Shown in pieces: positions 13,486-56,137 of a stretch of DNA of 64,000 nt. Position numbers and translations under genes: made by a program. The number at the start of each line of letters is the position of its first letter. Positions within the stretch are counted from its first letter, which is position 1. Origin of the DNA: a virus. Taxonomy: Duplodnaviria > Heunggongvirae > Uroviricota > Caudoviricetes. The notes under the pieces were generated by a model, which saw only the letters and a program-made list of their open reading frames with translations, searched no databases and was not told where the DNA came from. Location of the stretch: positions 1-64,000 of IMG/VR virus record IMGVR_UViG_3300002834_000024. One strand, written 5' to 3'.

Positions 13486-13507
13486 ATTATTTATATTAAA
13501 AAATAAA
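13486..13507 (+). promoter_or_regulatory. candidate late promoter motif ATTATTTATATTAAAAAATAAA
   Basis: Near-identical about 20-nt motif also at 42233-42253 and 61681-61700, each 20-40 nt upstream of a structural gene ATG. Confidence 0.45.
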
Positions 13508-38754: not shown

Positions 38755-38784
38755 TAGGTATTTATAACAAAATAATAGTTTCAG

Positions 38785-40572
38785 ATGAACTTAAAGGAAT
38801 TAAATAGTTTTATAAACAAATTAACAGAGAATGTTATAAATAGGATAAATGAGGAAAAATTACCAAATGGTAATTGGAAATACAATAATTTAATCATTGA
38901 ACCAGACGAACTTGAGAACACTGCATTGAATTGGGCAGAAAACTATTGGTATGATAAGAAAAATGGTCAAAGAACAACCAGCGCAATGAGAGAGTTTTAT
39001 GATAATTTTGGAGAAACTGATAGTGATCCAATGGAATATGAGGGATTATTTTCTGAATATTTATCTCTTTGCGAAAAATATAAAAATGATCCTGAAATTC
39101 AAGCAAAGTATGAGGAAGATTATGAAGAAGATGAAAAATTAGAAATTTTTAGTAATCCTGAAAGTACAAAAAAAGAAATTGAAATTGAATATAATTTAAA
39201 ACCAGGTGATGTTCAAAGGGTTATTAATGTAACTAAAAGTTACATGAATTGGGACGATAATGAAATGTTAAATAGAATAAAGTATACATTTGGTAATATG
39301 GAAAAATCAGAAGTAAAAGAGTGGATTGAAAATTATATAAGAATGTATGGTAAAAATGAATCAAGAAAACTTACCAGTGAAGTCATAAAAGAAACAATTA
39401 TTAAACCAATAGTTGAACGTTATCTACTTGAAGCTGAAATGGATTTTGCTGATGATGATAATATTGTTATTGTAAATAATAATGAAGATGAAATTGAAGA
39501 AGCAACCACTACATCAGGAGTTGGAAATTTTGCTTATGATGCACCAGCCTTTGGAGCTGATCAGGAAACAAAAAGACGTGATTTTTTTAGTGGGGGTATG
39601 AGAAAAGAAAGTCAAGAAAGACTTCATGCTTCTATCAAACAACTTGTTGAAAATCGTTTAAAAAAAAAAGTAACCATTAATGAAGCATCTCTTGGAAAAG
39701 AATTGATGAGTCATTTTCAAAAAGCATTAACCAATCCAGATTTATTTAATGATCCAGCATGGATAAGTCGTCATGAAGAAATTCAAGATGATAATAGTAA
39801 TCCTATTAAAATAACTAATAGTCAATTATTAACTAAAATAATTCCTAAATATACAAATATAAACCCTGATTTAGTTAAAAATGTGGGGTATCAAAGGGCT
39901 TTGATGCTTATGAAAGGAAATAAACATCGTAATGATTATGCAGTAAAGCTTACACAACAATTAGTTGATATGGATAAAGAATTACAACAAAATCCATCAT
40001 TAGCCAATGATTCCACATTTATGACAAAATATAATGACTTAAATGATAAGTATGGTAATCGTGTTGCATTAGGAGGAAAAGCAAGTAAACGAAATGCAGG
40101 TATTGAAAAAGATACTGTACAGCTTGTATCTGGAATTGTTACAAGAGCATTTAACTTTATAGCAAATATATATAAAAGCGTTGGGTTAATATTTAACAAA
40201 GAATATCTATGGATTAATAGTAAAACAGGAAAATTGACCAATAAAAGACCTGAACAAGATTGGAACTCATTGCGAGTTGATATATATGAAAAACTTGGAT
40301 TTGAAGATCATATGGGAAAATTAACACGTATTCCAGGTATGCGTAATGATGCAGAAGTTGAGGAAGTTTATAATATTGAAAATGATAGTGAATTTTTAAG
40401 AAAACTTGCTGAAATATTACCAACTTGGGATGAATCTGAATTAAATGCAGATGAAATTTTATCCCAAGCCGAAGATTTCAAAGAAAGAACTGAATATGCT
40501 TCAAAAAAACGTGCAAATGCGAATTTAGAAGGTATGGGTGATATAGAAATGCAATATAACACTGGTGGATAA
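38785..40572 (+). CDS. hypothetical protein sharing a ~120-aa domain with the polyvalent protein 52991-56137
   Basis: Residues about 310-430 (FQKALTNPDLFNDPAWISRHEEIQDD...NPDLVKNVGYQRALMLM...YGNRVAL) align with FTDALNNPKLFNEPNWIQKHKEIQDN...NPELMSNMGIENAINLL...YGNRVNL in 52991-56137. Confidence 0.5.
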   Translation: MNLKELNSFINKLTENVINRINEEKLPNGNWKYNNLIIEPDELENTALNWAENYWYDKKNGQRTTSAMREFYDNFGETDSDPMEYEGLFSEYLSLCEKYKNDPEIQAKYEEDYEEDEKLEIFSNPESTKKEIEIEYNLKPGDVQRVINVTKSYMNWDDNEMLNRIKYTFGNMEKSEVKEWIENYIRMYGKNESRKLTSEVIKETIIKPIVERYLLEAEMDFADDDNIVIVNNNEDEIEEATTTSGVGNFAYDAPAFGADQETKRRDFFSGGMRKESQERLHASIKQLVENRLKKKVTINEASLGKELMSHFQKALTNPDLFNDPAWISRHEEIQDDNSNPIKITNSQLLTKIIPKYTNINPDLVKNVGYQRALMLMKGNKHRNDYAVKLTQQLVDMDKELQQNPSLANDSTFMTKYNDLNDKYGNRVALGGKASKRNAGIEKDTVQLVSGIVTRAFNFIANIYKSVGLIFNKEYLWINSKTGKLTNKRPEQDWNSLRVDIYEKLGFEDHMGKLTRIPGMRNDAEVEEVYNIENDSEFLRKLAEILPTWDESELNADEILSQAEDFKERTEYASKKRANANLEGMGDIEMQYNTGG

Positions 40573-40574
40573 CA

Positions 40575-41363
40575 ATGAAAATTAAACCAAAATTAAACGA
40601 GGATACAGTACAATTCAATAACTGGATATACCCTGATGATAGTGATCTTGCATTAGAATATCGTATTGAATATATTGGGCATGATGCAGATCCATTTGAA
40701 ACATTTAGTACATCAGATGAATTTGTTGATGCTGTTCATAATTCTAAATCATATAAGATAACACAACAAACTGATAATCGAATTGACTATAGAAGTCATA
40801 CCATTGATCAAGATGACTTATTAGATATGATTAGAACATATCGTTCATATCCAGAATTTAGAAATGAAGATACAGTACAAGCAATTTATGATGGATTTAG
40901 AAATAATTCACCAATGAAGATGCCAATTCTTCTTCAATTTCCAAATGGTAGAGTAAGAATATTAAGTGGTAATTCAAGAGCAGATATTGCAATACAATTA
41001 TTGGGATATTATCAGGCAATATTATTAAAAATACCTAAACCAGAACAAAACGAAAATATAACTAAAATCATTCCAATAATTAAAGAAGATAGCGATTATA
41101 CATATCTTAAAAAAGATACTGGAAATTATAGAGATATGATTGATAGCGATATTACAACCACAGAACCAGTTGAAGATACGCTTGCTGGAACGAAAAGCCC
41201 AACATCTGATGAAATTGGAAATATTAGAACAAGAAATAATTATTGGTGGTCAAGAACAACTGGTAGTAAAAATATGAATTGTAATAAAATTATCTTAAAA
41301 AAAGATTTAAAAGAACATTATAGTAAACTTATTGACGGATATGCAACATTTTTTCATAAATAA
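40575..41363 (+). CDS. hypothetical protein (weak ParB/Srx-like block)
   Basis: 262-aa ORF, 3 nt after the preceding gene. GRVRILSGNSRADIAIQLLG loosely resembles the ParB DGHHR region but lacks the catalytic residues. Confidence 0.4.
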   Translation: MKIKPKLNEDTVQFNNWIYPDDSDLALEYRIEYIGHDADPFETFSTSDEFVDAVHNSKSYKITQQTDNRIDYRSHTIDQDDLLDMIRTYRSYPEFRNEDTVQAIYDGFRNNSPMKMPILLQFPNGRVRILSGNSRADIAIQLLGYYQAILLKIPKPEQNENITKIIPIIKEDSDYTYLKKDTGNYRDMIDSDITTTEPVEDTLAGTKSPTSDEIGNIRTRNNYWWSRTTGSKNMNCNKIILKKDLKEHYSKLIDGYATFFHK

Positions 41364-41733
41364 AAATAGTGAATTACCAATTTTAGAAATGCGGTTAATT
41401 GAGAATGGTAGATATGGAAGTATTGATCACGAAACTTTTTATATAGCCATCCAAAACGCAAATCTTTTTTTTACAATGATAGATGTTGATACTGGGGTTA
41501 CAAGAATTGCTCATCAACCAGCTGGTTTATTAGAAAATCTTGATTGTCCTGGTACATATAATATATATTATCAATTTAGAAAAAGAGATACACAAAGAGT
41601 TGGAAGATATAGAGGTCAATTTGAAATTGTATTTGGATTAGATGTTAAAAATGAATTTACTTCAAGAACATTAATAGTTCCAATACATGATGAATTGATT
41701 GTAAATGTTATGGATGGTTCAATTAAAAAATAA
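41332..41733 (+). CDS. hypothetical protein
   Basis: 133-aa ORF overlapping the previous gene by 32 nt. The true start may be an internal Met. Confidence 0.35.
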   Translation: MTDMQHFFINKNSELPILEMRLIENGRYGSIDHETFYIAIQNANLFFTMIDVDTGVTRIAHQPAGLLENLDCPGTYNIYYQFRKRDTQRVGRYRGQFEIVFGLDVKNEFTSRTLIVPIHDELIVNVMDGSIKK

Positions 41734-41905
41734 TTAAAATAACATTTTATAATCATGGTCAGAAAAGTAATTTATCACAAGGAAAACGAAGCTTACTACA
41801 CAGAAGTAGTCGGACTTGTTCCATCTTTAGCAAGTAGGGGATTTTTTGTATTTCCTCCATTGCCATAAAATAAACACATCTATTTATTAATAAAATAAAT
41901 ATATT

Positions 41906-42217
41906 ATGGCGACATTAGTCAATAATATGCCATATCCCGATGGCATAGATTTTAGTACAAAACCCCTGGAACAGGTTGATCCATATCATGGACAGTCTTA
42001 TTTAAACTCATCAAATGAACATTTACATAATATATTTTCATCAAGTGGGCAAAATGTAGAGGATGGAACTGGTCAAAATGGACAAAATCTTTGGCAAACC
42101 AGAGATGATTTACAATTGGCTGGTAGTTATAACTTTGGTAGTTTCAGCGATTATAATAATTTCAATATATTAAAATGGGGGAAATTTTTAACACCCAATT
42201 TTGCTAGCTATCTTTAA
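41906..42217 (+). CDS. hypothetical protein
   Basis: 103-aa ORF preceded by CTATTTATT at 41880-41888. Confidence 0.4.
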   Translation: MATLVNNMPYPDGIDFSTKPLEQVDPYHGQSYLNSSNEHLHNIFSSSGQNVEDGTGQNGQNLWQTRDDLQLAGSYNFGSFSDYNNFNILKWGKFLTPNFASYL

Positions 42218-42232
42218 AATTTTTATCTTATT

Positions 42233-42253
42233 CTATTTATATTAAAAAATAAA
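42233..42253 (+). promoter_or_regulatory. candidate late promoter motif CTATTTATATTAAAAAATAAA
   Basis: Near-identical to the motifs at 13486-13507 and 61681-61700. 12 nt upstream of the tail fibre ATG. Confidence 0.45.
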
Positions 42254-42264
42254 ATTATTCTATT

Positions 42265-45200
42265 ATGAGTTCAAATAATATTGGAATACCAAGACAAAGA
42301 GTCCCTTTTAGGGGATATATTTTCAGATTAATGGAAAATAATGGGATACCAAACCCTGCGGGTGGTCAAACAAGGGAAGAACTTTGGGGCTACTTCATTG
42401 AAGAAATGAGCAAAAAGGGTGGTAGTACTATTATAACTAATTTGAGTGCTACTGGTGGTTCTCTTGTAAGTGAATTAACAGCATCATTATCAGGTAATAC
42501 ATTAACTGTTAATAAAAAAGACACAAACATTGATACAGGTGTATCAGTTGATACATCATTACCAATTATAGCTGGTCAGAATGTAGTGTTTAGCGGTTCT
42601 GTACCAGGTGGAGTTACAATTAGTGTACCAAGTATTGGTGTACAATCAAGATTCACATCAACAGAAAATGGTTCTGGTGCTGTTGGTTCAGTACTTCCAC
42701 TTACAATATCAGCAACAACACCATTTAACGCTGGCGATATATTGGCAGTTGGTTCAATTGTTTATTTAGCAAATAACTTTACTGTTGAAGTTACAACGAT
42801 AAATACTTTAATGGATAGTTATGATGGTGTTGTAATCGAAGTTAGTAATACACAAGTTCAATCTGACTGGAATGAAACAAATTCCGCATCAGATGCTTAT
42901 ATTCTAAATAAACCAGATTTTACTGGTCTTAGTACAGATGTAACAAATATTACAAATACACTTAATGATATAATTGGTCAATTTGGTGATGGTTACTTTG
43001 TAAAAGAATTGGTTGCCAATGTAGATACAACATTAAAAACAGTTGAAATTGTAAAAACACATGTACCTATTGATCCATTGTTACCAACAAACATTTATCC
43101 TTTTACATTACAGGTAGGTTCTGCTTTAACTTTGGCTGCATCAGTTGATATAAATGGTGATCCTGTTGTTACAATTGATGCCGATTTGACATCTCCAGGA
43201 AGCCCAATTACAAATATAATCAATGATATTACAAGTATTAATACAGATATTACAAATATTAATACTAACATCACAAATATCCAACAAGATATAATTGACA
43301 TTCAGGGTGATATTACAAATATTAATACTGACATCACAAATATCCAACAAGATATTACAGATTTACAAGTTGATGTTAGTAACAAGGTTGATAAAATATC
43401 TGGTAAAGGATTAAGTACAGAGGATTATACAACAGCTGAAAAAACAAAATTAGCAAGTATTGAACCAGGCGCACAAGTAAATGTGCAATCTGATTGGAAT
43501 CAAACAAATACTGCTGCTGATGATTATATCAAAAATAAACCTACATCATTAAGTGCAACTTGGGGTAGTATCACAGGTACATTGAGTAATCAAACTGACT
43601 TACAATCTGAATTAGATGATAAAGTTGATAAAGTTAGATTTGGTGATGGTTATTTCGTTAAAGAATTGGTTGCCAATGTTGATACAACATTAAAAACTAT
43701 CGAAATTATAAAAACTCATCAATCAGTTAATGCTTCTGATCCAACAATGGTTTATCCATTAACAATTGAAGCTGGTTCTGGGTTGTCAATGGCTGCATCA
43801 GTTGATATAAATGGCGATCCAGTATTAACACTTGATGTTGATACAACAGCACCAGGAAGCCCAATTACAAACATTGTTAATGATATAACAAACATTACAA
43901 ATAATATTAATGATATAATTGGTCAATTTGGTGATGGTTACTTTGTAAAAGAGCTTGTTGCTAATGTTGATGATATTAATAATGAAATTGTTGTTGTTAA
44001 AACACATGTTTCAATTGATCCGTTAGATCCAACAATGGTTTATCCATTAACCATTAAAGCTGGTACAGGATTAGATTTAGTTGCAAGTGTAGATGGTGGT
44101 GGTCATCCTGTTGTTACAATCAATTCAACTGTTAGTTCAAATGTAACATATTGGAAAACTGTAAATACTCCAAGTGGAATTGTGGTTGGTAGCGTTGTTA
44201 CTGATGATTTTACAGATTTAACTAAAATCTCTGGTCCAAATGCAACACCAGATGAACAAGATCATATATTTGGTGTGGATGCTGCTGGAAATTCATTTGA
44301 ATCTCTTGTTACAGGTGTTAGTGGAACAACTGTTACATCACAAGTTATTATTGTAAACGTTGTAATAAGCACAGTTTGGGGTGGAATAACTGGTAACATA
44401 ATGAATCAACCTGAATTTACTCCATTTGGCGATGGTTATATTGTAAAAGAATTGGTTGCTAATGTAGATATATCAACAAAAAGTATTGAAATCGTAAAAA
44501 CACATACATCATTAATACCAGCCAATCCAACAATGGTTTATCCATTAACAATTGAAGCTGGTTCTGGGTTGTCAATGGCTGCAAGTGTTGATATAAATGG
44601 TGATCCTGTTGTTACGATTGATGTTGATTTGACATCTCCAGGAAGTCCAATTACAAATATCATCAATGACATAACAACAATTCAAGGTGATATAACAACA
44701 ATTAACAATACATTAACAAGTCATAATACAGCAATTACAAATATTCAAAATGATATTACAAATATTAATACAGATATTACTAATATCAATACGGATATAA
44801 CAAATATTAACACTGACATTACAAACATCCAAACTGACATAACTAATTTGGATAATAGGGTTACTACTGTTGAAGGTGATATTACAACAATCAATAATAC
44901 AATTACTGATATAACAGGTCAATTTGGCGATGGTTACTTTGTAAAAGAGCTTGTTGCCAATGTTGATACTGTAAATGATGAAATAGTTGTTATCAAAACA
45001 CATGTATCAATAAACCCATCTGATCCAACAATGGTTTATCCATTAACTCTTAAATGCGGTAATGGTTTATCATTAGCAACAAGTACAGATACAAATGGTG
45101 ATCCTGTTGTTACTATTAATTCATCAGCACAAAGTGCAAATAGAATGAGTTTTAATGGAAACGGAACTTCTAATACAATAACATTACCAAGTACCATTAA

Positions 45201-45339
45201 TTCTGTTGGTGCTGATGTGTTTTTAAATGGGTTATTGCTTGGTTATAGCGAATATACATTAACAAATATTGTATTTACATTTAGTGGTTCATGGACTTTA
45301 GATCCAGCTGATGACATTATAATCAAATGGTATAATTAA
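42265..45339 (+). CDS. modular tail fibre protein (5 copies of a ~100-aa FGDGYFVKELVANVD module plus DITNINT heptad repeats)
   Basis: 1024 aa. Module starts at aa about 233, 455, 553, 712 and 885, each with FGDGY(F/I)VKELVANVD...KTH...DP..PT.VYPLT...G.GL..AASVD.NGDPV.T. Heptad repeats TDITNINTNITNIQQDIIDIQGDITNINTDITNIQQDITDLQ. N-terminus VPFRGYIFRLMEN...EELWGYFIEEM is shared with 50334-52859. Confidence 0.7.
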   Translation: MSSNNIGIPRQRVPFRGYIFRLMENNGIPNPAGGQTREELWGYFIEEMSKKGGSTIITNLSATGGSLVSELTASLSGNTLTVNKKDTNIDTGVSVDTSLPIIAGQNVVFSGSVPGGVTISVPSIGVQSRFTSTENGSGAVGSVLPLTISATTPFNAGDILAVGSIVYLANNFTVEVTTINTLMDSYDGVVIEVSNTQVQSDWNETNSASDAYILNKPDFTGLSTDVTNITNTLNDIIGQFGDGYFVKELVANVDTTLKTVEIVKTHVPIDPLLPTNIYPFTLQVGSALTLAASVDINGDPVVTIDADLTSPGSPITNIINDITSINTDITNINTNITNIQQDIIDIQGDITNINTDITNIQQDITDLQVDVSNKVDKISGKGLSTEDYTTAEKTKLASIEPGAQVNVQSDWNQTNTAADDYIKNKPTSLSATWGSITGTLSNQTDLQSELDDKVDKVRFGDGYFVKELVANVDTTLKTIEIIKTHQSVNASDPTMVYPLTIEAGSGLSMAASVDINGDPVLTLDVDTTAPGSPITNIVNDITNITNNINDIIGQFGDGYFVKELVANVDDINNEIVVVKTHVSIDPLDPTMVYPLTIKAGTGLDLVASVDGGGHPVVTINSTVSSNVTYWKTVNTPSGIVVGSVVTDDFTDLTKISGPNATPDEQDHIFGVDAAGNSFESLVTGVSGTTVTSQVIIVNVVISTVWGGITGNIMNQPEFTPFGDGYIVKELVANVDISTKSIEIVKTHTSLIPANPTMVYPLTIEAGSGLSMAASVDINGDPVVTIDVDLTSPGSPITNIINDITTIQGDITTINNTLTSHNTAITNIQNDITNINTDITNINTDITNINTDITNIQTDITNLDNRVTTVEGDITTINNTITDITGQFGDGYFVKELVANVDTVNDEIVVIKTHVSINPSDPTMVYPLTLKCGNGLSLATSTDTNGDPVVTINSSAQSANRMSFNGNGTSNTITLPSTINSVGADVFLNGLLLGYSEYTLTNIVFTFSGSWTLDPADDIIIKWYN
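43222..43365 (+). repeat. 21-nt-period coding repeats (gatattacaaatattaatact-like) encoding DITNINT heptads
   Basis: Repeated units are seen directly at 43222-43365. A second array is at about 44690-44910 within the same gene. Confidence 0.8.
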
Positions 45340-45359
45340 AAAAAAAATAAGATATAGAT

Positions 45360-45701
45360 ATGGCAACACAAATCAGAATAGGACAACTTCATGACGAAGT
45401 TTTTAAAGTAATATCTGGAAAAGGTGTATATGACGTTGATGTTGAAATTCCATTGACATCTGGTTTCTACGATATAGATACAGCTATTGCTGCAACATCT
45501 GGGGAAGACCCAGAACCAACTTTTATAAAGTTTTCGATAGATTCGACAACTACAGAAGTATGGTATTTTAATCTTGAAAAACCTTTTACAACAACAGATT
45601 ATTTAGATTCAGATAATTGGATAAGGGTTTTAGTATTAAGTGATAGACCTAATTATTTTACACCAGTAGATGATGGTGTATTATGGTGGGATACTGAATA
45701 A
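45360..45701 (+). CDS. hypothetical protein (tail fibre module accessory)
   Basis: 113-aa ORF between tail fibre genes. Confidence 0.4.
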   Translation: MATQIRIGQLHDEVFKVISGKGVYDVDVEIPLTSGFYDIDTAIAATSGEDPEPTFIKFSIDSTTTEVWYFNLEKPFTTTDYLDSDNWIRVLVLSDRPNYFTPVDDGVLWWDTE

Positions 45702-45745
45702 AAAAAAATTTTAATTAACGCAAATAATAAAAAAAAAATTAAATC

Positions 45746-48028
45746 ATGGCATTAAAAATTAAAGACAATGCGGGAACTGTCGTAAAAGTTCCGTCAATGA
45801 AAGAAGTAAACGACAGGATAACAACAAGATTTCAAGCTCCTGGTGAGTTTAAAACGGTCAATGGCTCTGTTATCTATGGTAGTGGAAACTTTTCTCTTGA
45901 ACCAGCAATTAGTGCTGGGACTGCTGGGCAATATTGGGAAGGTACAAAAACATGGGAAACACCAGATAGTACACCAACTGCTTCAAGCACAAAATTGATA
46001 ACATCTGGTGGTGTTTATACTGCAATTCAAAATATTATTTCTGGAAGTTTACAGTTTGATACAACTATCTATGATGATATGGGTTCTGGTAATACAAATG
46101 CACCATTAACACAGGCTGTTTATGATGACGTTTTAGCACCATTGAACACTCACATTGCTAATACAACTATTCACGTAACATCTACTGATAAAACAACTTG
46201 GAATGGTAAACAAAATCAAATCAATGTTAGTGGTATATTAAAAGGAGATGGTACTGGTGGTGTTACATCTGCTGTTGCTGGTACTGATTATCAAGCCCCA
46301 TTAAGTTCATTTTCGGCAAATACACTTAATTTGTATAACATTGCAACAAACACATATGGTCAAGTAACCAATGCTGTTGCTGTTACGGCTGCTGATATTG
46401 CTGCATTAGGTGTTGATATAACAGATACAACTTATAACTTGGCTGATGGTGGAACTGATGGTACGGACGGAGAAGATGGTTTGATGTCAATGGGAGATAA
46501 GTTTAAATTGGATAACATGGAAGACAACTCACAAGAAAATGTTATTGAAAGCATTAGTATTGGTGGTGTTGCACAAACTGTTGATTCAAGTAAAAACGTA
46601 AATTTACCTGCTTACCCAACTGTATCAAACGCAACAATTACAATTAATTCGTCAAATACAACTGCACAAGCAACTTCGCCAGCTGACACATTTACATTAA
46701 ATGGTAGCGCAACTACAATTGATTTCCATAGAATTGCTAAAACTGGTAATTATGCTCATTTATTGAACACACCCGATTTAACAGTTTATATCGAAAAAAT
46801 CAATCCTGTTATTGCAATTGGTAATTTTCCAGCGATTCTTTCAGATGGAAGTTTAGAAGATAGTGGTTTTAGTGATGCAGATTTTGATGCTGCTGGCGCT
46901 GCTGCTACTGTTCAAGGTAACTTAACAACTCATATCAGTAATACAAGTAACCCTCATAGCACAACATTATCACAAGCTGCAATTGCACAAGGTTCTGCAT
47001 TAACTGTTGTACCAGCTGCTGGTATATATGAAGGTACTGATACAAGTGCAACCACAAAAAACACGAAATATCAAACAAAATCAGAAGTTGAATCAATCGC
47101 TCAAGCTTATGCACAAGGAACTGCTAAATATCTTGGTCAGTTGAAATATGGTTCTTGGGATGTTACTGATATGACAGCAATTAACTCATTTGGAGTTGTT
47201 GTTGGGGACAGATGTGGGGATTATACTACACAAATTATATATGAATATACCGCAGGTTCTCCTGTTGGCCCAAATGATGTTGCAAGTATAAATCCAGGAT
47301 TTTATTGGGCTGCATTACCAGTAACTGGAAATGAAGAAATTGGGCAATATTATGATATTGTATTCTGGTTTGGTACATGGTATGATGGTATAACATATGG
47401 CGGACAAGTTTCAGCAACAATGACTATATCCGATTTAACTAATCCTGCTGCACCTATTTGGGATCTTATTGTATATTCAAGTGCTATGCCTGATGGTGCA
47501 GTAACAGATGCGAAAATTGGTAACAGAGGACCACTTATTGATGTAATGGCTGTTCCCGCTGGCGATTATTCTGCTAAAAACTTAACAGCATGGTTACAAC
47601 AATTCTATTCAAATGTTGAATATTTGGAAGATGCAAAAGCTGACAAAGTAGCTGGCGCAACTGCTGGTAACTTCGCTGGATTAGACGCAAATGGTAATTT
47701 GGTTGATAGTGGATACACTGATACTGATTTCATTGCTGCAAGTGCATTGAACGCTGGCACACTTTCTTCTTCAAGTACAGTAAGTGTACCAAGTGAAAAA
47801 ACGGTTTATGATGCAATTCAATCTGTTAATACATCTATTACAGGATCAATCGGAAATGGTCAATTAACTCTTACATTAGCACCTGCTGATGGATCAACAA
47901 CAAGTGTAAGTAACTTTACTGCTAACCAAGCAACTGCTTCCCCAGTTTCGGTTACAATAGATGTACCTGCTGCTTATGTGATTGGTTCTGATTTTGGGGG
48001 CGATGCTGAACAAGATTGGACAACCTAA
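45746..48028 (+). CDS. tail fibre protein (paralogue family B)
   Basis: 760 aa. N-terminus MALKIKDNAGTVVKVPSMKEVNDRITTRF is homologous to the N-terminus of 48918-50216. C-terminal block QYYDIVFWFGTWYDGITYGG...IWDLIVYS is homologous to a block in 50334-52859. Ser/Thr/Gly-rich fibrous composition. Confidence 0.6.
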   Translation: MALKIKDNAGTVVKVPSMKEVNDRITTRFQAPGEFKTVNGSVIYGSGNFSLEPAISAGTAGQYWEGTKTWETPDSTPTASSTKLITSGGVYTAIQNIISGSLQFDTTIYDDMGSGNTNAPLTQAVYDDVLAPLNTHIANTTIHVTSTDKTTWNGKQNQINVSGILKGDGTGGVTSAVAGTDYQAPLSSFSANTLNLYNIATNTYGQVTNAVAVTAADIAALGVDITDTTYNLADGGTDGTDGEDGLMSMGDKFKLDNMEDNSQENVIESISIGGVAQTVDSSKNVNLPAYPTVSNATITINSSNTTAQATSPADTFTLNGSATTIDFHRIAKTGNYAHLLNTPDLTVYIEKINPVIAIGNFPAILSDGSLEDSGFSDADFDAAGAAATVQGNLTTHISNTSNPHSTTLSQAAIAQGSALTVVPAAGIYEGTDTSATTKNTKYQTKSEVESIAQAYAQGTAKYLGQLKYGSWDVTDMTAINSFGVVVGDRCGDYTTQIIYEYTAGSPVGPNDVASINPGFYWAALPVTGNEEIGQYYDIVFWFGTWYDGITYGGQVSATMTISDLTNPAAPIWDLIVYSSAMPDGAVTDAKIGNRGPLIDVMAVPAGDYSAKNLTAWLQQFYSNVEYLEDAKADKVAGATAGNFAGLDANGNLVDSGYTDTDFIAASALNAGTLSSSSTVSVPSEKTVYDAIQSVNTSITGSIGNGQLTLTLAPADGSTTSVSNFTANQATASPVSVTIDVPAAYVIGSDFGGDAEQDWTT

Positions 48029-48060
48029 TCTTACTAAAAAAAACATAAAAAGTTTTAAAA

Positions 48061-48092
48061 AACGGTTTAGAAATAAACCGTTTTTTTTTTTT
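48061..48092 (+). terminator. rho-independent terminator
   Basis: AACGGTTTA gaaa TAAACCGTT (9-bp stem) followed by T12, directly after tail fibre gene 45746-48028. Confidence 0.75.
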
Positions 48093-48109
48093 GAAAAATA
48101 TTTATTGAC

Positions 48110-48796
48110 ATGAAATATGAAGGAGTATTTGTAAGAAAAAGACCATTTAGTAGTTTACTTCATTTATGGGAGTTCAATGGTAATGCTATTGATATAGTTA
48201 ATGGGTTAAATTTATCAACCAGTAGCACTGGTAGTGTGTCATATATTGCAGGTAAAATTAAAAATTCAGTTTACTTTAATAGGGGGCATTTGATTGGTCC
48301 ATCAGGGCGTAATCTTAATATAAACAATAACCAGTGGACAATTTCCTATTGGACAAATATTGTTACATTTGGAAATGCCGCTACTGACCCTATTGTTGGA
48401 ATACTAAATAGATCTGTTGGTAGCACAAATTTTGGAACACGTTTAATTTTTTCAACACCCAATGTTTTTTATGTAAATTATTGTAACAGTAATACACAAT
48501 TAAATTCAACTGTTACATTTGGACCAAATATATGGGTACATATTGCATTGAAACCACCAAACATATTTTTTATCAATGGCACAAGAAATGCACCAACTGG
48601 AAATACAATGACAACATTAAACATTGGAAATCCTGTGTATGTTGGATTAGATAATTATACGGCTATTAGAACCATGCAGGGTCAAATGGAACAATTAGCT
48701 GTATGGACTAGACAATTAACTGATGCTGAAATATTATCCATATATAATAGTGGAAATGGTTTAGATTTTAATTTATGGGGAAATAATTTAAAATAA
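48110..48796 (+). CDS. concanavalin-A-like/LamG-like lectin-fold protein (putative fibre-associated)
   Basis: 228 aa. Beta-rich composition and motifs like W.ISYWTN...LNIGNPVYVGLDNY...MEQLAVW resemble LamG/pentraxin-like domains. Low-confidence fold guess. Confidence 0.3.
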   Translation: MKYEGVFVRKRPFSSLLHLWEFNGNAIDIVNGLNLSTSSTGSVSYIAGKIKNSVYFNRGHLIGPSGRNLNINNNQWTISYWTNIVTFGNAATDPIVGILNRSVGSTNFGTRLIFSTPNVFYVNYCNSNTQLNSTVTFGPNIWVHIALKPPNIFFINGTRNAPTGNTMTTLNIGNPVYVGLDNYTAIRTMQGQMEQLAVWTRQLTDAEILSIYNSGNGLDFNLWGNNLK

Positions 48797-48917
48797 TTAG
48801 TTTATGCCATTTATTGTGGGTATTTAGATTTATTTTTAAAACTATTTATAATAAAAATAATTCATATACCAACTTTGGTATATCATTAAAAATAACATTT
48901 TAATTAATTAAAAATCT

Positions 48918-50216
48918 ATGGCATTAAAAGTAAAAGATGCACAAGGAAATGTGCAAAAATTGGCAAATTTGGCAGAAGTAAATGGTAGAATTTCAACCAG
49001 AATTGCAACAAAACAGGATACATTAGTATCAGGTACAAACATTAAAACAATCAATCTTGGAACCATATTAGGATCTGGTAATATTGATTTACAAACACCA
49101 TTAATTGCTGGAACAGATTATGCAACACCATCACAATTGGCATTAAAAGAAGATGCTATTACTGCCGGAACAACCGCCCAATATTGGAGAGGCGATAAAA
49201 CATGGCAAACATTTCCATCAATACCTGCTGCTGCAAATAATGGTTTATTGAATATTATAACAACTTCTTCAACTAATGCAGTATACGCATCTGCAACATT
49301 ATTAACAAGTATGGACTCTGGAAGTAATGTAACTTTAACATTACATGATGTTGCAAGAACTGGTAATTATTCGGATTTAATTGGGGCTCCAACACTTGCA
49401 AATATTATAATGAGTGGAACATCAGCTGGTGGTGATTTAACTGGTACATATCCAAATCCACAATTAGCAAATGTTTCTACTTTAACCGCAGGTAATTATG
49501 GGCAAAATTCAAACGTAAATGTACCAACAACTGGTGGAAGTTTTAGTGTACCATATATTACATTTGATACAAAAGGTCGTGCGACTCATGCTGCTAATTA
49601 TACAATTACTATTCCAGCCTATCCAACAAGTTTACCGCCAAGTGGTACTATTTTGGGTGATTTGGCTGGTTCAACCTGGCCAACTCTTGATTTGGCAGCA
49701 ATAACAACCGCAGGTACTCATGGTTCAACAACCGCACAAAGTCCCGCATTTGGTGGTTCATTCACAGTTCCTTATGTAACAGTTGATGCAAAGGGTAGAG
49801 TAACAGCTGGCGGAACAGCACAAGTTAATTTGCCAACGCCTCCATCTCCAACTTATGGTACTTTAACATTACAAGTTGAAGGTGCAGCCTTATCTCCTAC
49901 ATTTACAGCAAATGCAAATGCAACTATTAATTTTACAGGTGTAAAAAATAAACCAAGATTGGACGATGTTTGGTGGAATAGTACTACTGGTGTTATTACA
50001 ATATCATTTAGTGATGCAGTTGCAAGTTCAACAAGAATTTATATACACAAGGGTGATAGTACAAACTTAGCTGGAAACATTGGGGGTACAGGTGGCACAG
50101 GCGCAATGTCAACAAGTGGTGTTCTTTTAACACAAGCAACTTCTACTGGATTAACATTCACTCCAACAACAGCAACCGAAGTTACAAATGGTGATTGGGT
50201 AATTAGTATTAGATAA
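48918..50216 (+). CDS. tail fibre protein (paralogue family B, short)
   Basis: 432 aa. N-terminus MALKVKDAQGNVQKLANLAEVNGRISTRI is paralogous to 45746-48028. TGNY..L block (HDVARTGNYSDLIGAPTL versus HRIAKTGNYAHLLNTPDL). Confidence 0.55.
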   Translation: MALKVKDAQGNVQKLANLAEVNGRISTRIATKQDTLVSGTNIKTINLGTILGSGNIDLQTPLIAGTDYATPSQLALKEDAITAGTTAQYWRGDKTWQTFPSIPAAANNGLLNIITTSSTNAVYASATLLTSMDSGSNVTLTLHDVARTGNYSDLIGAPTLANIIMSGTSAGGDLTGTYPNPQLANVSTLTAGNYGQNSNVNVPTTGGSFSVPYITFDTKGRATHAANYTITIPAYPTSLPPSGTILGDLAGSTWPTLDLAAITTAGTHGSTTAQSPAFGGSFTVPYVTVDAKGRVTAGGTAQVNLPTPPSPTYGTLTLQVEGAALSPTFTANANATINFTGVKNKPRLDDVWWNSTTGVITISFSDAVASSTRIYIHKGDSTNLAGNIGGTGGTGAMSTSGVLLTQATSTGLTFTPTTATEVTNGDWVISIR

Positions 50217-50242
50217 GATTTTTATCTAAAATAAAATTATAT

Positions 50243-50283
50243 AAAACTATATTCTTGTTTATGGGGATATAGTTTTATTTTTT
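50243..50283 (+). terminator. rho-independent terminator
   Basis: AAAACTATAT (14-nt loop) ATATAGTTTT, a 10-bp stem, followed by ATTTTTT. Directly after 48918-50216. Confidence 0.6.
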
Positions 50284-50333
50284 AATGACAAAAAGAATTA
50301 AAGCAAATATTTATAAATAAAAATAAAAGAATT

Positions 50334-52859
50334 ATGGCTAAAGACATCGTAAGTCAATACTCAAAAAGAGTTCCTTTCAGGGCATATATATTTTTTCTTT
50401 TAGAAAAACACCATATTCCGTTACCACCACGTGATTCCACAATCAACACAAATGAGGAGTTGTGGGGATATTTCATTGAAATGATGTATCATAGATGTGT
50501 GAAAAAAATAACATTTTTACCAACAAATGGATATGCGGTTGGTGATATTAATACTCAACTTATTAATAAAAGTTTTATTTTTACTGCAAAATACTTAAAT
50601 GTTTTCAATAATAATCAATTTACAAGGGATTTTACAATTTCAACAAAAGGAACAGCAAGTATTTCAGGTACAAATCATTCAGTTGTATTATCAGTTGAAT
50701 TAAGGGATAAATTTTATACAAATCAAGCTGGTGTTGGTGGTCTTGTTGGTTCAATTGATCATTATAATACATATGATTTACCAATTGTTTCAATATTAGG
50801 ATCATATGGTTTTAACCCAGATGAAGCACCAAAAGTTGGGAGTACGGTTTTCCATATGAATGGTTATCAAACTGAAATTGTAAGTATAAACACGTTAAAT
50901 AATACGTTTGTTGGTAGAACAATATCAATGAATAGTACAGATATTTGGTTCTATATGCACGATACAAGAAGTAATCTTATCAGTCATATGAACAACTTTA
51001 ATAATCCCCATAGAGTTACATTAACACAAGCTGAATATTATCAAGGTACAACACCATTAGTAGTAAATCATAATGTATATCTTAATAGTCAAAACTCAAA
51101 CAATAGATTTATAACATATGCCGAAGCATTAAATCTTGTTGCATCAGGTGGTATTGGTTTAGCTGGTAAATTCCATACAAGTGAATATGGACAAGGAAGT
51201 GTTGGTAGTTATAACACATATACAACTGCTCTGGCAGTTCCTTATGTTGTTGGTGAAACATTATCTGTTGGTGCAACAGTTTTCCACGCAAATCGCTTCC
51301 AAACAGTTGTAACAGCAATCTATGGATCTACATTCCAAGCTCAAACTGTATCAACAAATTCAATTGATATTGCATACTTGATTTGGGACATGCAATTATC
51401 AATTGATAATTTAACAAATTTATACAATACATTGAACTCAAACAAGATGGACAAAGTACCAAGTGCTGTTGTCAATAACTTTGCCAATTTTGTTTCAGGC
51501 GGAAATACAAAAGATAGTGGATATAATCCATCAAGTTTTGATCCAGCTGGTTCTGCTGCTGCTGTTCAATCTAATTTAAACGCTCATACATCTGCAAATA
51601 ATCCTCATAACATTTCACTTACAGTTGCCGAAGCTGCACAAGGTGGAAATAATTTAACGGTTATGCACGATATATTTAGATTAACCGAAACACCTAATAA
51701 TCGTTATATAACATATGCCGAAGCTGTAAATATTGCATCAAATATTGTTCAAGGAACCCCACAATATATGGGACAGATTAAATTTGGTGCTGATACTGTT
51801 TCCAGAATGAATACAATACAAAATTATTTTACAATAGCGTTAAATGATTTATGTATTGTTCAACCTATTAATTCACCATCAACCAATGCTGCATATAGAT
51901 GGAATGGAACTACATGGGTTCTAACATCATTAACTGCTGCAACATTAGGACAATTCTATGATATTGTATTCTGGTTTGGTACATGGTTAGATGGAATATT
52001 GTATAATGGTACAGTTTCAGGTAGAATAACTTGTTCAGATTCAGCAACCCCAATGTGGGATTTAATTGTTCACACTGATGTTGTTGTGGATGGTTCTATT
52101 ACAACCCAAAAATTGGCTAATGGTGCTGTTACAAATGTTAAAATGGCTAATATGCCAGCAATGACACTTAAAGGAAATGACACAAGTTCACCAGCAACTC
52201 CAATGGATTTAACAAAAGCACAATTAAAAGTGATGTTGAATTTTATTGAACCAGGTGATGTTCCTACTTACCAAAGTGTTGGAGATAGAACTATAACTAT
52301 ATCAAAAAACAATGTAACAATAGATTCATTTACAACAAATGAAAGTGGTGCTATACCAAAATATATTAATATTCCCGTTCCAACTGTACCGAATAGTACA
52401 GCAATGATGAAGGGTGATGGTATGGGTAATTTGATTGCTGCAACACCTGGAAGTGATTATCTAACAACCGCTTCACTACCAACTGTTAATGATGCTGCAA
52501 TTAGAATAATTAGTTCTTCAACTGCATTGACTGCACCAACAACCGCAACTAATATTGCAACTGTTAATCAAACAAGTGCTACAACTTTAACATTACATAA
52601 AGTTGCATGGACTGGTGATGCTGGTGATTTGACTGGTGGAACAGGAATGTCACATGCTTATATGACAAACTTGTCTTGGAATAGTACAACTGGTGTTGTG
52701 AGTGTTACAACTAATCAAGCACCAACAACACGTAGAGCTCAAACAACAAGTGGTACAACAATACCTGGTAATTGGAGTGCAAACGGAACATCATTTACAT
52801 TTACGCCAACAACGGTTACTGATATAACTGTAAGCGAGTTCATCCTGATTATATACTAA
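50334..52859 (+). CDS. tail fibre protein (N-terminus paralogous to 42265-45339, C-terminal block paralogous to 45746-48028)
   Basis: 841 aa. VPFRAYIFFLLEKHHIPLPP...EELWGYFIEMM at the N-terminus. QFYDIVFWFGTWLDGILYNG...MWDLIVHT near the C-terminus. Confidence 0.6.
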   Translation: MAKDIVSQYSKRVPFRAYIFFLLEKHHIPLPPRDSTINTNEELWGYFIEMMYHRCVKKITFLPTNGYAVGDINTQLINKSFIFTAKYLNVFNNNQFTRDFTISTKGTASISGTNHSVVLSVELRDKFYTNQAGVGGLVGSIDHYNTYDLPIVSILGSYGFNPDEAPKVGSTVFHMNGYQTEIVSINTLNNTFVGRTISMNSTDIWFYMHDTRSNLISHMNNFNNPHRVTLTQAEYYQGTTPLVVNHNVYLNSQNSNNRFITYAEALNLVASGGIGLAGKFHTSEYGQGSVGSYNTYTTALAVPYVVGETLSVGATVFHANRFQTVVTAIYGSTFQAQTVSTNSIDIAYLIWDMQLSIDNLTNLYNTLNSNKMDKVPSAVVNNFANFVSGGNTKDSGYNPSSFDPAGSAAAVQSNLNAHTSANNPHNISLTVAEAAQGGNNLTVMHDIFRLTETPNNRYITYAEAVNIASNIVQGTPQYMGQIKFGADTVSRMNTIQNYFTIALNDLCIVQPINSPSTNAAYRWNGTTWVLTSLTAATLGQFYDIVFWFGTWLDGILYNGTVSGRITCSDSATPMWDLIVHTDVVVDGSITTQKLANGAVTNVKMANMPAMTLKGNDTSSPATPMDLTKAQLKVMLNFIEPGDVPTYQSVGDRTITISKNNVTIDSFTTNESGAIPKYINIPVPTVPNSTAMMKGDGMGNLIAATPGSDYLTTASLPTVNDAAIRIISSSTALTAPTTATNIATVNQTSATTLTLHKVAWTGDAGDLTGGTGMSHAYMTNLSWNSTTGVVSVTTNQAPTTRRAQTTSGTTIPGNWSANGTSFTFTPTTVTDITVSEFILIIY

Positions 52860-52897
52860 AATTCATATATACAAAAGTGTATATATACAAAAATGTA

Positions 52898-52941
52898 TAT
52901 CAGTGGTTATCTAAAATAAATTGGTAGCCACTGATTTTTTT
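52898..52941 (+). terminator. hairpin plus T-run terminator
   Basis: ATCAGTGG...CCACTGAT (8-bp stem, long loop) followed by TTTTTTT, directly after 50334-52859. Confidence 0.5.
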
Positions 52942-52990
52942 ATTGTTTTGTTGAAAATGATATTTATATTATATAATAATGTCTTAAAAA

Positions 52991-55900
52991 TTGGATTTAC
53001 AAAATATCATAGAACAAACCATTAAACAGGCTTTAAGAAGTGCTGAAAAGACTGTTGATACCAACCCATCTGAAAAAGAGATAAAAGCTGGAAATTACAA
53101 GAAAGGACATATCAATATTCTTGGATTTGATATTACCATTGAAAATCCAAAAGGTTCTTATCGAAGTGGAAAAGATCGTGATGGTAAAGAATGGAAAACT
53201 AAAATGTATAACACTTATGGTTATTTTAAAAACAGTGTTGGATATGATGGGGACCATGTTGATGTATTTTTAGGAAACAATTTAGAATCAAACAAAATAT
53301 TTGGAATAGACCAATTTATAAAAGGGAAGTTTGATGAAACTAAATTTATGATGGGATTTGATAGTGAAGAAGAAGCCAAAAAAGCATATTTATCCAATTA
53401 TGATAAAGATTGGAAAGGTTTCAAGTATATACGTGAAACTGATGTTGAAACATTTAAAAAATGGTTATATAGAGGTAAAAAACAAAGATTACCATTCCAT
53501 GATTATGTTACATTATCTGAAAGTATATTGAATGAGTTGTCAATAGGTAGGGTATTATTATCCCATTTCACAGATGCTTTAAATAACCCAAAACTGTTTA
53601 ATGAACCAAATTGGATACAAAAACATAAAGAAATTCAAGATAATCATGGTGATAATTTTAATATTACTAAAATTAATAGTGAGATATTAAATAAATTAAT
53701 ACCACAATATACATCTAAAAATCCAGAATTAATGAGTAATATGGGTATTGAAAATGCTATTAACTTATTAACTAAAAATAAATATCGTAGTGATCAAGCA
53801 GTAAATTTAACAAAAGAATTATTATCCTTACATAATGAACTGAAAGAAAATCCAGAATTAATTAATAATGGGAATTTTATGGATAGGTACAATCATTTAA
53901 AAAAATTATATGGTAATAGAGTTAACCTTGATAAACCATATAAAAAAAGTGATCGTAGAGACACAAATGGTAATTTAATAAATAATAAAGAAGATATACC
54001 TTTACAAAAAAAACCTATTGAAACAAAATCTAATATAAATAAAAAATCTTTGAAACAAGAGCCTCTTGTAATTGGTTGGGAAATGATTGAATCGAAAGAA
54101 ACAAATATTATAAGGATTAATAATCGTGGTTCATGGTTAGAAGATTTTTGTGAAAAAATTAAAAAATATACAGATAAATTTGAAATACTATATGACTGTG
54201 CTTATGATAAACATAATAAGACTGGACAAAAATATGGTATTGAAAGTAAAGAATATCCTGGTATTGGGCAATTTGATTATGTAATGATTTATTCTGATGT
54301 TTCGGTTGAAGATAAAGAAAAATATAAATATTTAAGAAATGATGGCGAATATGAAATCACATGTCGAGGAATAAAAACCAAAGAGATACTCAAGGATATA
54401 TTAAAAAGATTAGGTCAAAATGGGAATAGTGGTCATACATTTGCTTTCAAAATTAAATCTTTAAATGGAAACAAAGAAGATACATTACAATATGATGGCG
54501 ATGGACATGATTTTGTTGAATTATTAGATGATAAAAAGAATGAAACAATTAATGAATCCACAGAAAATATTGAACAAGAAGAAAGCAAAAAAATGATTAA
54601 AAATTATTTTGGTATTCAACTGATGGATGATTGGGACAAACTACGACTTGGCGGTGGTGGATCTGGGGTTGCATATTTAACATTGGATGGTTATGTATTA
54701 AAGCTAACAACATCACCAAATGAATTTCGGACAGCACAACGAATGAAAGGAAAAACATTTAAACATTTAGTTAATGTATATAATGTATTGGATTTTGAAC
54801 AAGAAAATATTCCGCCTTATGGTTATTGGAAAAAAGGTAAATGGGTGAGATGTTTTTATGGTATTCTTGAGGAATATGTTGATTCTAATTTACAGTATAA
54901 CCAATTTATGCACAAATATATTATGGATGTATTATTCAATGATAATATCATGAATGGAATAGTTGGTACAAAAGCATCTCATAATAACCGTTATATTATG
55001 TTAGAGTATCTTATATCAGAAGAAAATGTTAATACTATTATTTCACGAATTGAAAGTTATGATAAATTTAATGAAGATCAAAAAAATGTTTATATAGATG
55101 CAACACAACAGTTACATGAAGCCGTTCTGGAAATGGAAAGTGTTCCAGGTCTTGAATTAGATAGTTTTTTGGGGGGTTCAAATTTTGGCTTTGATGATAA
55201 TGGTGTTATAAAAGCATTTGATTTGGAGGGTATTATGACTGAAAACACATTATATGAACGTGATATGCGTTTCTATAATGACAACAATGAAGAAATGGAT
55301 ATTACAGATTATCTGGATACTTCATCTGAAATGAAAATAGATACTGCAATCAATATTATCAATACCAAATTAAGACAACCACAAGCAAGACATCAAGTAT
55401 TAAAATATATTTTGAAAAATATTAATAAATCGAACATGTCTGGACAAATGAAAATGGATTTAAGAGATCAAGTCATGGAAGATTTATCTAACAAAGTTAC
55501 AAAACTTATTATACCAACCATGTTTAAAGATGGTGAACAACAAAGAGTTGATGTTGATACACATTTAGAAGACTTAAATGAGGAAAATAAAAGATTATTA
55601 TCGCACAAATTTCAAATACCAACAGAATTATTTCAAACACTATCTAATAGATTTAACAAAATAAAGGGTAATCAAAATTTTACAAGTAGAGATGGGTATA
55701 AAAGACTTCAAAATCTTGTTAATTCAAATGGTGAAATAGGTTACTTATGGATGAATAGATTAAAAAATTTCTGGAAATATTTCGATGGAGATGCTGATAA
55801 TGATATTGAAGCGTGGTTAAATGGGGGGGGCGAAATGCGAGATTGGGTTAATAAAGCATTGGATGAAGCAGAAAAATCACTTGAAATGTCTAAAATGACT

Positions 55901-56137
55901 TCAAAAGATGCTGGTATTAAAAATGCCTTTATCCAACATCACTATAAGAACAATAATCAAATAAATGTCAATTCTGATGCTGTATCATTTGGAAAAGTAA
56001 AAAATAATATGGGGGAAAGTTTGGTGTATTGGCATGTTGATGGTGATGCTTCCCCTGACAGTGATAGTTATGAAATTGGTCCAGAAGAACCAATTACAAT
56101 TAAAAATGTTGTTGAACAAATAATTAAAAATATATAA
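52991..56137 (+). CDS. large multidomain (polyvalent-like) protein with a kinase-like domain
   Basis: 1048 aa starting at TTG (TAA in frame 2 codons upstream; no ATG until about residue 70). The N-terminal block YGYFKNSVGYDGDHVDVFLG...KGKFDETKFMMGFDSEEEAKKAY resembles inorganic pyrophosphatase signature regions (YGYI...DGDPVDVLV; KGKWVKVEGWENAEAAK). The middle domain is shared with 38785-40572. Kinase-like region LGGGGSGVAYLTLDGYVLKLTT...LDSFLGGSNFGFDDNGVIKAFDLEG. Followed by a cell-wall amidase gene. Confidence 0.55.
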   Translation: MDLQNIIEQTIKQALRSAEKTVDTNPSEKEIKAGNYKKGHINILGFDITIENPKGSYRSGKDRDGKEWKTKMYNTYGYFKNSVGYDGDHVDVFLGNNLESNKIFGIDQFIKGKFDETKFMMGFDSEEEAKKAYLSNYDKDWKGFKYIRETDVETFKKWLYRGKKQRLPFHDYVTLSESILNELSIGRVLLSHFTDALNNPKLFNEPNWIQKHKEIQDNHGDNFNITKINSEILNKLIPQYTSKNPELMSNMGIENAINLLTKNKYRSDQAVNLTKELLSLHNELKENPELINNGNFMDRYNHLKKLYGNRVNLDKPYKKSDRRDTNGNLINNKEDIPLQKKPIETKSNINKKSLKQEPLVIGWEMIESKETNIIRINNRGSWLEDFCEKIKKYTDKFEILYDCAYDKHNKTGQKYGIESKEYPGIGQFDYVMIYSDVSVEDKEKYKYLRNDGEYEITCRGIKTKEILKDILKRLGQNGNSGHTFAFKIKSLNGNKEDTLQYDGDGHDFVELLDDKKNETINESTENIEQEESKKMIKNYFGIQLMDDWDKLRLGGGGSGVAYLTLDGYVLKLTTSPNEFRTAQRMKGKTFKHLVNVYNVLDFEQENIPPYGYWKKGKWVRCFYGILEEYVDSNLQYNQFMHKYIMDVLFNDNIMNGIVGTKASHNNRYIMLEYLISEENVNTIISRIESYDKFNEDQKNVYIDATQQLHEAVLEMESVPGLELDSFLGGSNFGFDDNGVIKAFDLEGIMTENTLYERDMRFYNDNNEEMDITDYLDTSSEMKIDTAINIINTKLRQPQARHQVLKYILKNINKSNMSGQMKMDLRDQVMEDLSNKVTKLIIPTMFKDGEQQRVDVDTHLEDLNEENKRLLSHKFQIPTELFQTLSNRFNKIKGNQNFTSRDGYKRLQNLVNSNGEIGYLWMNRLKNFWKYFDGDADNDIEAWLNGGGEMRDWVNKALDEAEKSLEMSKMTSKDAGIKNAFIQHHYKNNNQINVNSDAVSFGKVKNNMGESLVYWHVDGDASPDSDSYEIGPEEPITIKNVVEQIIKNI

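Follow-up and report, generated by a model that had tools for sequence, protein, structure and literature searches.

In the 64,000-nucleotide (nt) window analyzed here, i.e., positions 1-64,000 of the virus record IMGVR_UViG_3300002834_000024, the gene at 52991..56137 (+ strand) encodes a protein of 1048 amino acids (aa) that is, in our judgment, probably a polyvalent protein of a T4-like jumbo phage, produced late, incorporated into the phage head and delivered with the DNA to act on the host. Polyvalent proteins, a class known from phages and conjugative elements, are thought of as the first strike of a phage, namely enzymes delivered at the very moment of infection. To our knowledge, biochemical work exists for hardly any of them, and for none encoded by a T4-like jumbo phage. 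The domain map obtained from the open reading frame (ORF) and local profile searches comprises six modules, which follow each other in the order InPase domain, domain X, mid domain, truncated kinase, helical linker and C-terminal helical domain. In the following, P- and L-numbers are the labels given in this analysis to metagenomic proteins and to related contigs, respectively.

A preliminary description of this DNA, made from the sequence alone, had proposed a multidomain and possibly polyvalent protein, and the label fits since the relatives of the protein shuffle the same modules. Recorded identically as P0001 on a 347,076-bp metagenomic contig, the window protein was compared with P0002, P0007, P0009, P0011, P0012 and P0018. 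Among these relatives, the modules occur in other orders and combinations (InPase-kinase-linker-C-terminal domain, C-terminal domain-InPase-linker-kinase, InPase...mid...nucleotidyltransferase, and others), and ART-like, HExxH, NTP_transf_2 and APH domains are added. The ortholog P0002 (1387 aa, 67% identity), which is syntenic and likewise followed by an amidase gene, has domain X replaced by ~500 residues in which an HExxH motif is present and ART-PolyVal is weakly matched. InPase domains and kinases devoid of a C-lobe have been reported in polyvalent proteins of phages of Bacteroidetes and Verrucomicrobia, together with stand-alone versions of the kinases, and virion packaging of the class has been inferred (Iyer et al., 2017; PMC5512222). 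As in these proteins, many unrelated domains, including a truncated kinase and the InPase domain defined in that work, are gathered here in one phage-encoded polypeptide whose modules are shuffled between relatives. The window protein differs from them by the absence of MuF, ParB, helicase and methylase modules, by four modules matching no family of the Pfam copy searched, its catalogued polyvalent-associated domains included, and by its origin from a T4-like jumbo phage. It is an extension, with some new modules, of the class defined in 2017 and no new kind of system.

Regarding the N-terminal module, for which the preliminary description had noted pyrophosphatase-like signatures, residues 29-159 (53075..53467, +), with the metal-binding motif YGYF...DGDHVDVF, match the Pfam family InPase (PF18823) with an E value of 1.5e-49 over 134 of the 135 model positions, well above the curated gathering score (167.8 vs 26.8 bits). 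Residues D86-G-D88-H-V-D91, E51, D115 and E116 are invariant across four relatives, leaving the DGDxxD metal site intact, and the InPase profile aligns in register, weakly (E 0.4-1.4), with the DGDPLD motif of classical mycobacterial pyrophosphatases. By tblastn, the InPase domain is present in 462 phage records, and the PHROG families that it matches are annotated as DarB-like antirestriction protein, virion structural protein and minor head protein. It is thus found in very different contexts, such as the interior of a 5,554-aa DarB-like protein in Bacteroides phage BKO1-TP3 or the N-terminus of a 690-aa protein annotated as virion structural in Cellulophaga phage phiST. The phiST protein CGPG_00081 (phrog_20705) belongs to the same InPase clade, with 49.7% identity over 144 aa, the remainder being unrelated. 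This is also the case of the portal of the Pa193/PB1 type (PDB 9b41), a virion component: the C-terminal region of Pa193 portal gp19 matches the InPase domain (E 3.8e-25), while the rest of the portal is unrelated to the window protein. In the published structure of this portal, residues 94-528 were built and the InPase region was not modelled (PMC11456595). By sequence, the N-terminal module belongs to the type-I inorganic-pyrophosphatase domains, in a clade specific to phage polyvalent proteins, and its enzymatic activity is predicted.

The truncated kinase spans residues 552-747 (54644..55231, +) and was delineated by a family alignment, a profile search of the PDB, AlphaFold2 and Foldseek. 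A HMMER search with residues 170-1048 returned 242 representative proteins, of which the best 150 were analyzed; in 37 of these 150, one to five copies of a unit of ~180-200 residues align with residues 552-747. The resulting kinase family alignment contains 22 sequences with 18-63% identity to the domain of the window, and the glycine loop, lysine, catalytic-loop-like and DFG-like motifs named in the preliminary description coincide with its invariant columns. Indeed, G554, G556, G559, A561, V569, K571, T573, D724, N731 and D744 are invariant over the 22 sequences and E578 nearly so, which corresponds to a glycine loop (GGGGSG), the beta3 Lys571, the alphaC Glu578, the catalytic Asp724, Asn731 and the DFG-type Asp744. 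Searched against all PDB sequences, the family profile gave 429 matches at E<=10, the best 60 of which are all protein kinases; TTK (E 0.002), SteC, LegK4, RSK and JNK are among the matches, with the catalytic loop and the DFG motif in register. Several family members are also recognized as kinases by PHROG models, with seven of the 22 matching phrog_15752 (T7 gp0.7-type kinase), six phrog_18305 (kinase) and four phrog_2828 (serine-threonine kinase); the relative P0016 matches Pfam APH above the cut-off (33.9 bits), and two members match Pfam ABC1. Structure prediction, which had been suggested as a check, points in the same direction: the AlphaFold2 model built on the family alignment (pLDDT 81.9, pTM 0.82) retrieved 169 PDB entries with Foldseek at E<=1e-3, the top 50 being all protein kinases or aminoglycoside phosphotransferases (probability 0.92-1.00). 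The corresponding TM-scores are low (0.26-0.39) because of a helical insert and of the absent C-terminal subdomain. In tandem relatives, each kinase unit stops ~10 residues past the I-D-L-G motif, and the model has a single low-confidence helix after D744; as the unit ends ~10 residues past the DFG-type Asp, the C-terminal lobe subdomain is missing. On the basis of the alignment and the model, residues 552-747 are a protein-kinase-like domain possessing the ATP-binding and phosphotransfer residues and lacking the C-terminal lobe subdomain, with a predicted activity.

Several known kinases offer points of comparison. As described for the polyvalent kinases of Iyer et al. (2017), the family has a Ser/Thr/Tyr-kinase-like core with intact active-site residues, ends after the DFG-type Asp and exists in stand-alone versions. 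Of two further features described for these kinases, a Gln in the last N-lobe strand is present in the family consensus (YGIVQEKL) and replaced by Glu in the window protein (GILEEY), and neither a His followed by the Asp nor the insert between them was recognized in this family. With T7 gp0.7 (phrog_15752), a phage-encoded kinase for host takeover, the relationship is carried by the seven family members cited above, the window sequence itself being below significance on this model; moreover, gp0.7 differs in being early and non-packaged. Salmonella SteC (PDB 8jbi), a type III secretion effector, is likewise a small atypical delivered kinase, with its glycine loop and VxK strand in register, and its similarity to the polyvalent kinase family profile (E 0.005) is marginal and limited to the N-lobe. 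Within the family, proteins of 1,100-2,400 aa (P0016, P0026, P0029, P0036, P0037, P0041, P0050, P0074 and others) contain three to five truncated-kinase units in tandem, each copy with the full set of motifs (LG.G..G.A, VLKVT, GIVQEKL, DYH.GN and IDLG).

The kinase block had further been said to recur in the small ORF at 11110..11763 (+), which encodes a stand-alone truncated kinase-like protein of 217 aa (ORF217; phrog_4301, E 2.4e-17). This holds at the level of distant homology: pairwise BLASTP between ORF217 and the 1048-aa protein has no significance, and the kinase-family profile is suggestive against the single ORF217 sequence (hhalign E 0.083), while the profile-profile comparison of the two families by hhalign gives a probability of 92.6% and an E value of 4.5e-7. 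Under relaxed hhalign settings, the alignment spans the whole domain with the catalytic and DFG-type Asp in register. In addition, two of the 22 polyvalent-kinase family members match phrog_4301, and P0073 is an intermediate recognized by both profiles, its ORF217-type domain scoring 1.3e-4 on the kinase profile. The ORF217 family counts 96 homologs, many of them from contigs of 280-376 kb, in which the GSG loop, G57, S58, Lys72, Asp185 and Asp204 are invariant; its best PDB match is the SteC kinase (E 0.025), again a marginal similarity confined to the N-lobe, with the glycine loop and the VxK strand in register. The catalytic set is incomplete, as the catalytic-loop Asn is replaced in the family (G-D-L-x-R-L-S-S-Y/W-G), and the chemistry of ORF217 is uncertain because of the absence of this residue. 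From these comparisons, ORF217 belongs to the same truncated-kinase superfamily, as a separate and stand-alone representative. Its homologs P0182 and P0191 have an N-terminal GNAT acetyltransferase domain, another effector-type fusion. A third kinase-like match, at 18997-19812 on the minus strand (E 0.015 among 293 ORFs), was dismissed, kinase motifs being absent.

Behind the kinase, the helical linker (residues 750-860; 55238..55570, +), predicted to be helical with a pLDDT of 50-77, leads to the C-terminal helical domain, whose core covers residues 864-974 (55580..55912, +) with the motifs GYKRL and LNGG..M..WVN. The linker has homologs in P0007, P0008, P0010, P0011, P0013, P0020 and P0025 and co-occurs with the C-terminal domain in relatives; it matches nothing in Pfam or PHROGs. 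The C-terminal helical domain, modelled with a pLDDT of ~97, accounts for 111 of the 150 best HMMER matches, and in 71 of these 111 it forms a stand-alone protein of ~150 aa, such proteins being encoded by dozens of uncultured phages. It has no match in Pfam or PHROGs and no specific match in the PDB or BFVD. In seven representative clusters (P0023, P0024, P0033, P0044, P0071, P0073 and P0089), the helical domain is followed by an ORF217-type kinase, and in P0001, P0002, P0007 and P0011 it is joined in the opposite order to a polyvalent-type kinase. That the fusions come in either order and involve either kinase subtype is an argument for this domain working with the kinase. On the other side of the kinase, the mid domain (residues 355-515; 54053..54535, +), conserved in P0002, P0012 and P0009, displays the invariant motifs LG..GN.GH.F.F and DGDGHD; it matches nothing in Pfam or PHROGs, and a profile search of the PDB returned only a chance match (E 0.36).

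Domain X (residues 181-313; 53531..53929, +) is the domain that the preliminary description had seen as shared with the protein of 595 aa encoded by the gene at 38785..40572 (+, ATG start). A single strong local BLASTP match between the two proteins (41% identity, 59% positives, E 2e-38) bears this out, with one domain of ~135 aa in common, which in the 595-aa protein occupies residues 298-429 (39676-40071). Domain X is the sole region common to both, and profile searches detected no kinase-like or pyrophosphatase domain in the 595-aa protein. Among the 293 open frames of the window, profile searches found domain X in these two genes only; beyond the window, searches turned it up solely in the 595-aa orthologs P0003, P0004 and P0014, and it is missing from the ortholog P0002 of the large protein. 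Pfam and PHROGs returned nothing for domain X or for the 595-aa protein, which had no tblastn match in the phage records either. An apparent tblastn extension of domain X to the Bacteroides phages BS-TP4 and BKO1-TP3 was rejected, the domain being judged absent from the BKO1-TP3 locus because the best BLASTP E value there was 1.2. Domain X is a module copied between the 1048-aa and the 595-aa genes within this phage lineage.

In three related phages, a gene for a ClpB/ClpA-like double AAA+ ATPase lies directly 5' of the gene of the 595-aa protein or its ortholog (window 36241-40572; L002 5472-9302; L003 5455-9971). In the window, this ATPase gene (36241..38754, +) matches phrog_4871 (E 3e-157) as well as AAA_2, AAA_lid_9 and ClpB_D2-small. 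Upstream of the conserved pair, on the opposite strand, there is a ribonucleotide reductase large-subunit gene. On L002, a 32-kb phage contig, an IS605 OrfB/TnpB (Cas12f-like) gene (1-863) adjoins the ribonucleotide reductase gene. The 595-aa protein itself, of which P0003-P0006 are orthologs, has around residues 236-265 (window 39490-39580) an invariant motif, (D/E)-I-E-E-(A/S)-T-T...G.(F/Y)(A/G)YDAPAF, also present in P0003-P0006; the acidic N-terminal region in front of it varies in length, and its I-E-E would fit an I-x-E site of the T4 gp21 type. Next to the tail-tube gene, a protein of 155 aa (window 14059-14526) has three L-x-E in its first 22 residues (MKLTEQQLREYVRNAVVESLNE) and is similar at its N-terminus to the 595-aa and 217-aa proteins.

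The large gene had been described as starting with TTG, and the TTG at 52991 is indeed the first start codon of the ORF; it appears, though, to be secondary to a nonsense codon in an older frame. The sequence ATG TCT TAA AAA TTG at window 52979-52993 corresponds to ATG TCT TAT AAA TTG in the ortholog locus (L001 10001-10015), so that an ancestral ATG lies 12 nt upstream in frame (ATG, TCT and in-frame TAA at 52979..52987, +), the TTG corresponds to Leu5 of the ortholog, and the TAA stands in for its Tyr3 (Met-Ser-Tyr; P0002 starts MSYKLDIKNIIEQ). Since a stop codon occupies ancestral codon 3, the frame now starts at TTG, after which all 1048 codons are intact, with no further stop or frameshift. 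Two origins come into question for the TAA, namely a genuine nonsense mutation, with translation re-initiating two codons further on, or an error of assembly. Recoding of TAA was rejected because, read with the standard code, the genes of the window are long and intact.

A terminator-like hairpin with a 13-bp stem and a U7 run (52899..52942, +; dG -18.1 kcal/mol, z -4.83) divides the large gene from the upstream 841-aa gene, and L001 has another hairpin with a T-run at the equivalent position. It is followed by the 13-mer GATATTTATATTA (52959..52971, +), a candidate promoter element located ~7-8 nt before the ancestral ATG and identical in sequence and spacing in the ortholog locus. Its core TATTTATATTA is found exactly at 13488-13498, 42234-42244 and 52961-52971, the first two sites lying upstream of the tail-tube gene (by 30 nt) and of the gene at 42265 (by 21 nt). 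The core may be a late-promoter element. The 13-mer is a local lead only, because it is unenriched in the AT-rich window (19 matches vs 17.5 expected) and does not occur before genes other than the polyvalent gene in the related loci. Downstream, the Amidase_3 endolysin gene (56139..56849, +; Pfam PF01520, E 6e-21; phrog_435 endolysin) begins 1 nt past the polyvalent stop codon, and L001 is arranged likewise. The terminator hairpin, the shared 13-mer and the 1-nt junction together suggest that the large gene and the endolysin gene form a late transcription unit.

The preliminary description had located the large gene between tail fibre genes and a cell-wall amidase. The endolysin is in place directly downstream; the upstream genes, on the other hand, bear only a resemblance to fibre genes. 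Five large genes at 42265-52859 are mosaic paralogs of one another: the genes at 42265 and 50334 have ~200 N-terminal residues in common (E 3e-17), those at 45746 and 50334 ~240 internal residues (E 5e-41), and those at 45746 and 48918 have similar N-termini (E 8e-16), while the gene at 48110 contains a ConA-like lectin domain. Such a pattern looks like that of tail-fibre genes, and family searches matched none of the genes upstream of the large gene to a tail-fibre family. In addition to the genes already cited, the window encodes tape-measure and tail-tube proteins, helicases and an RNA ligase. A T4-like head module is located 5-10 kb downstream of the large gene on the same contig (window 60945-61655 and beyond; L009 17955-21889; L010 14608-15787) and comprises a Peptidase_S77 prohead protease of the gp21 type, a 398-aa protein in the position of a scaffold, a Gp23-family capsid protein and a Portal_T4 (gp20) protein. 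Because the endolysin, the gp21-type protease, gp23 and the T4-type portal share a contig with tail genes, the source is, as judged from gene content, a jumbo phage (347 kb) whose head module is T4-like. In DNA sequence it has no close counterpart among cultured phages, a megablast search of the polyvalent gene against 50,697 phage records having given zero matches.

Packaging of the 1048-aa protein and its injection are plausible from context and analogy, because the gene is preceded by a terminator, directly adjoins the endolysin gene and has gp21/gp23-type genes downstream. T4 Alt, the T4 internal proteins and P1 DarB, enzymes that travel in the head and reach the cell along with the DNA, are functional analogs with no sequence relationship to it. 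T4-type heads load internal proteins by means of short N-terminal propeptides cleaved by gp21 at L/I-x-E (PMC9026906), and the present phage, like T4, has a gp21-type protease, gp23 and gp20; a capsid-targeting propeptide is not demonstrable here. L/I-x-E is found near the N-terminus of the 1048-, 595- and 217-aa proteins, and as 23 of the 56 window genes have one in their first 26 residues, this non-discriminating motif is a lead and not evidence. Also weighing against a packaged effector are the failure of Pfam and PHROG searches to find a MuF, portal or DarA-type packaging module in the 1048-aa protein and the fact that four of its six modules (domain X, mid domain, linker and C-terminal helical domain) have no assigned function. 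An unlikely alternative, still to be taken seriously, is that the same domains are made late and act in the already infected cell without ever entering a new host, for instance by clearing pyrophosphate while DNA is replicated or packaged, or through phosphorylation of proteins of the host or the phage near lysis. The missing virion-targeting module would be in keeping with such a role, as would the probable co-transcription with the abutting endolysin gene and the location of ORF217 homologs in other jumbo phages among accessory metabolic genes and not among structural ones. In several phages, however, proteins bearing an InPase domain carry virion, head or portal annotations, the flanking genes are structural, and the polyvalent class as a whole was inferred to be packaged (PMC5512222).

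Other features of the gene bear on whether it encodes active enzymes. The kinase domain of the window matches no Pfam family (E<=0.01) and no PHROG kinase model, and its catalytic loop, D-S-F-L-G-G-S-N instead of the family consensus D-Y-H-x-G-N, has a two-residue insertion between Asp724 and Asn731 (spacing of 7 vs 5), so that kinase activity is not assured. These two points, together with the Glu in place of the family Gln in the GIVQEKL strand and the upstream block resembling mosaic fibre genes, would agree with a structural or scaffold part of a tail fibre or baseplate, in which the enzyme-like domains are catalytically dead and the kinase fold serves as a pseudokinase binding module. We find this distinctly improbable, as every canonical catalytic position is kept and stays unchanged throughout a family with ~20-30% identity, the InPase domain retains its DGDxxD metal site, and a terminator stands between the large gene and the upstream block. 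The TAA at ancestral codon 3 also counts against a functional effector, its expression needing re-initiation at TTG unless the stop is an assembly error. That the gene is being lost, with the long ORF as a recent pseudogene inactivated by this TAA (TAT in the ortholog), is nevertheless very improbable: its 1048 codons are open, the TTG two codons past the stop is usable as a start and was the one chosen by gene callers, and three contigs, derived from at least two assemblies, encode the identical protein; a single-base assembly error would explain the TAA equally well.

Taking the 1048-aa protein as a head-borne polyvalent effector, its gene would be transcribed late, from its own promoter past the terminator and together with the endolysin gene, and the protein would be incorporated into the head and enter the cell with the DNA. 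Inside the host, the InPase domain might act by removing pyrophosphate or a signal derived from nucleotides, and the kinase by phosphorylating host proteins, for which precedents exist in T7 gp0.7 and in minimal secreted kinases like SteC, while the C-terminal helical domain could serve the kinase, e.g., in substrate recruitment or targeting. A more tentative idea, to which we give only a small chance, is that this helical domain is a dedicated and previously undescribed partner module of phage kinases lacking a C-lobe, with as a companion idea that domain X is a handle for the ClpB-like ATPase, proposed because the other carrier of domain X is always encoded beside a ClpB-like gene. If true, the helical domain could replace the missing substrate-binding lobe, or bring the kinase to its target or guide it into the capsid, and the ClpB-like unfoldase could load or remodel two head cargo proteins via domain X.

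The 1048-aa protein is thus a compact pair of predicted activities, a pyrophosphatase and a minimal kinase, with defined catalytic residues, and its ortholog, with metallopeptidase-like and ART-like modules instead of domain X, offers a natural module-swap comparison. The truncated kinase family to which it belongs is large in metagenomes and invisible to Pfam, and the recurrent association of kinase and helical domain could explain how kinases deprived of a C-lobe find their substrates.

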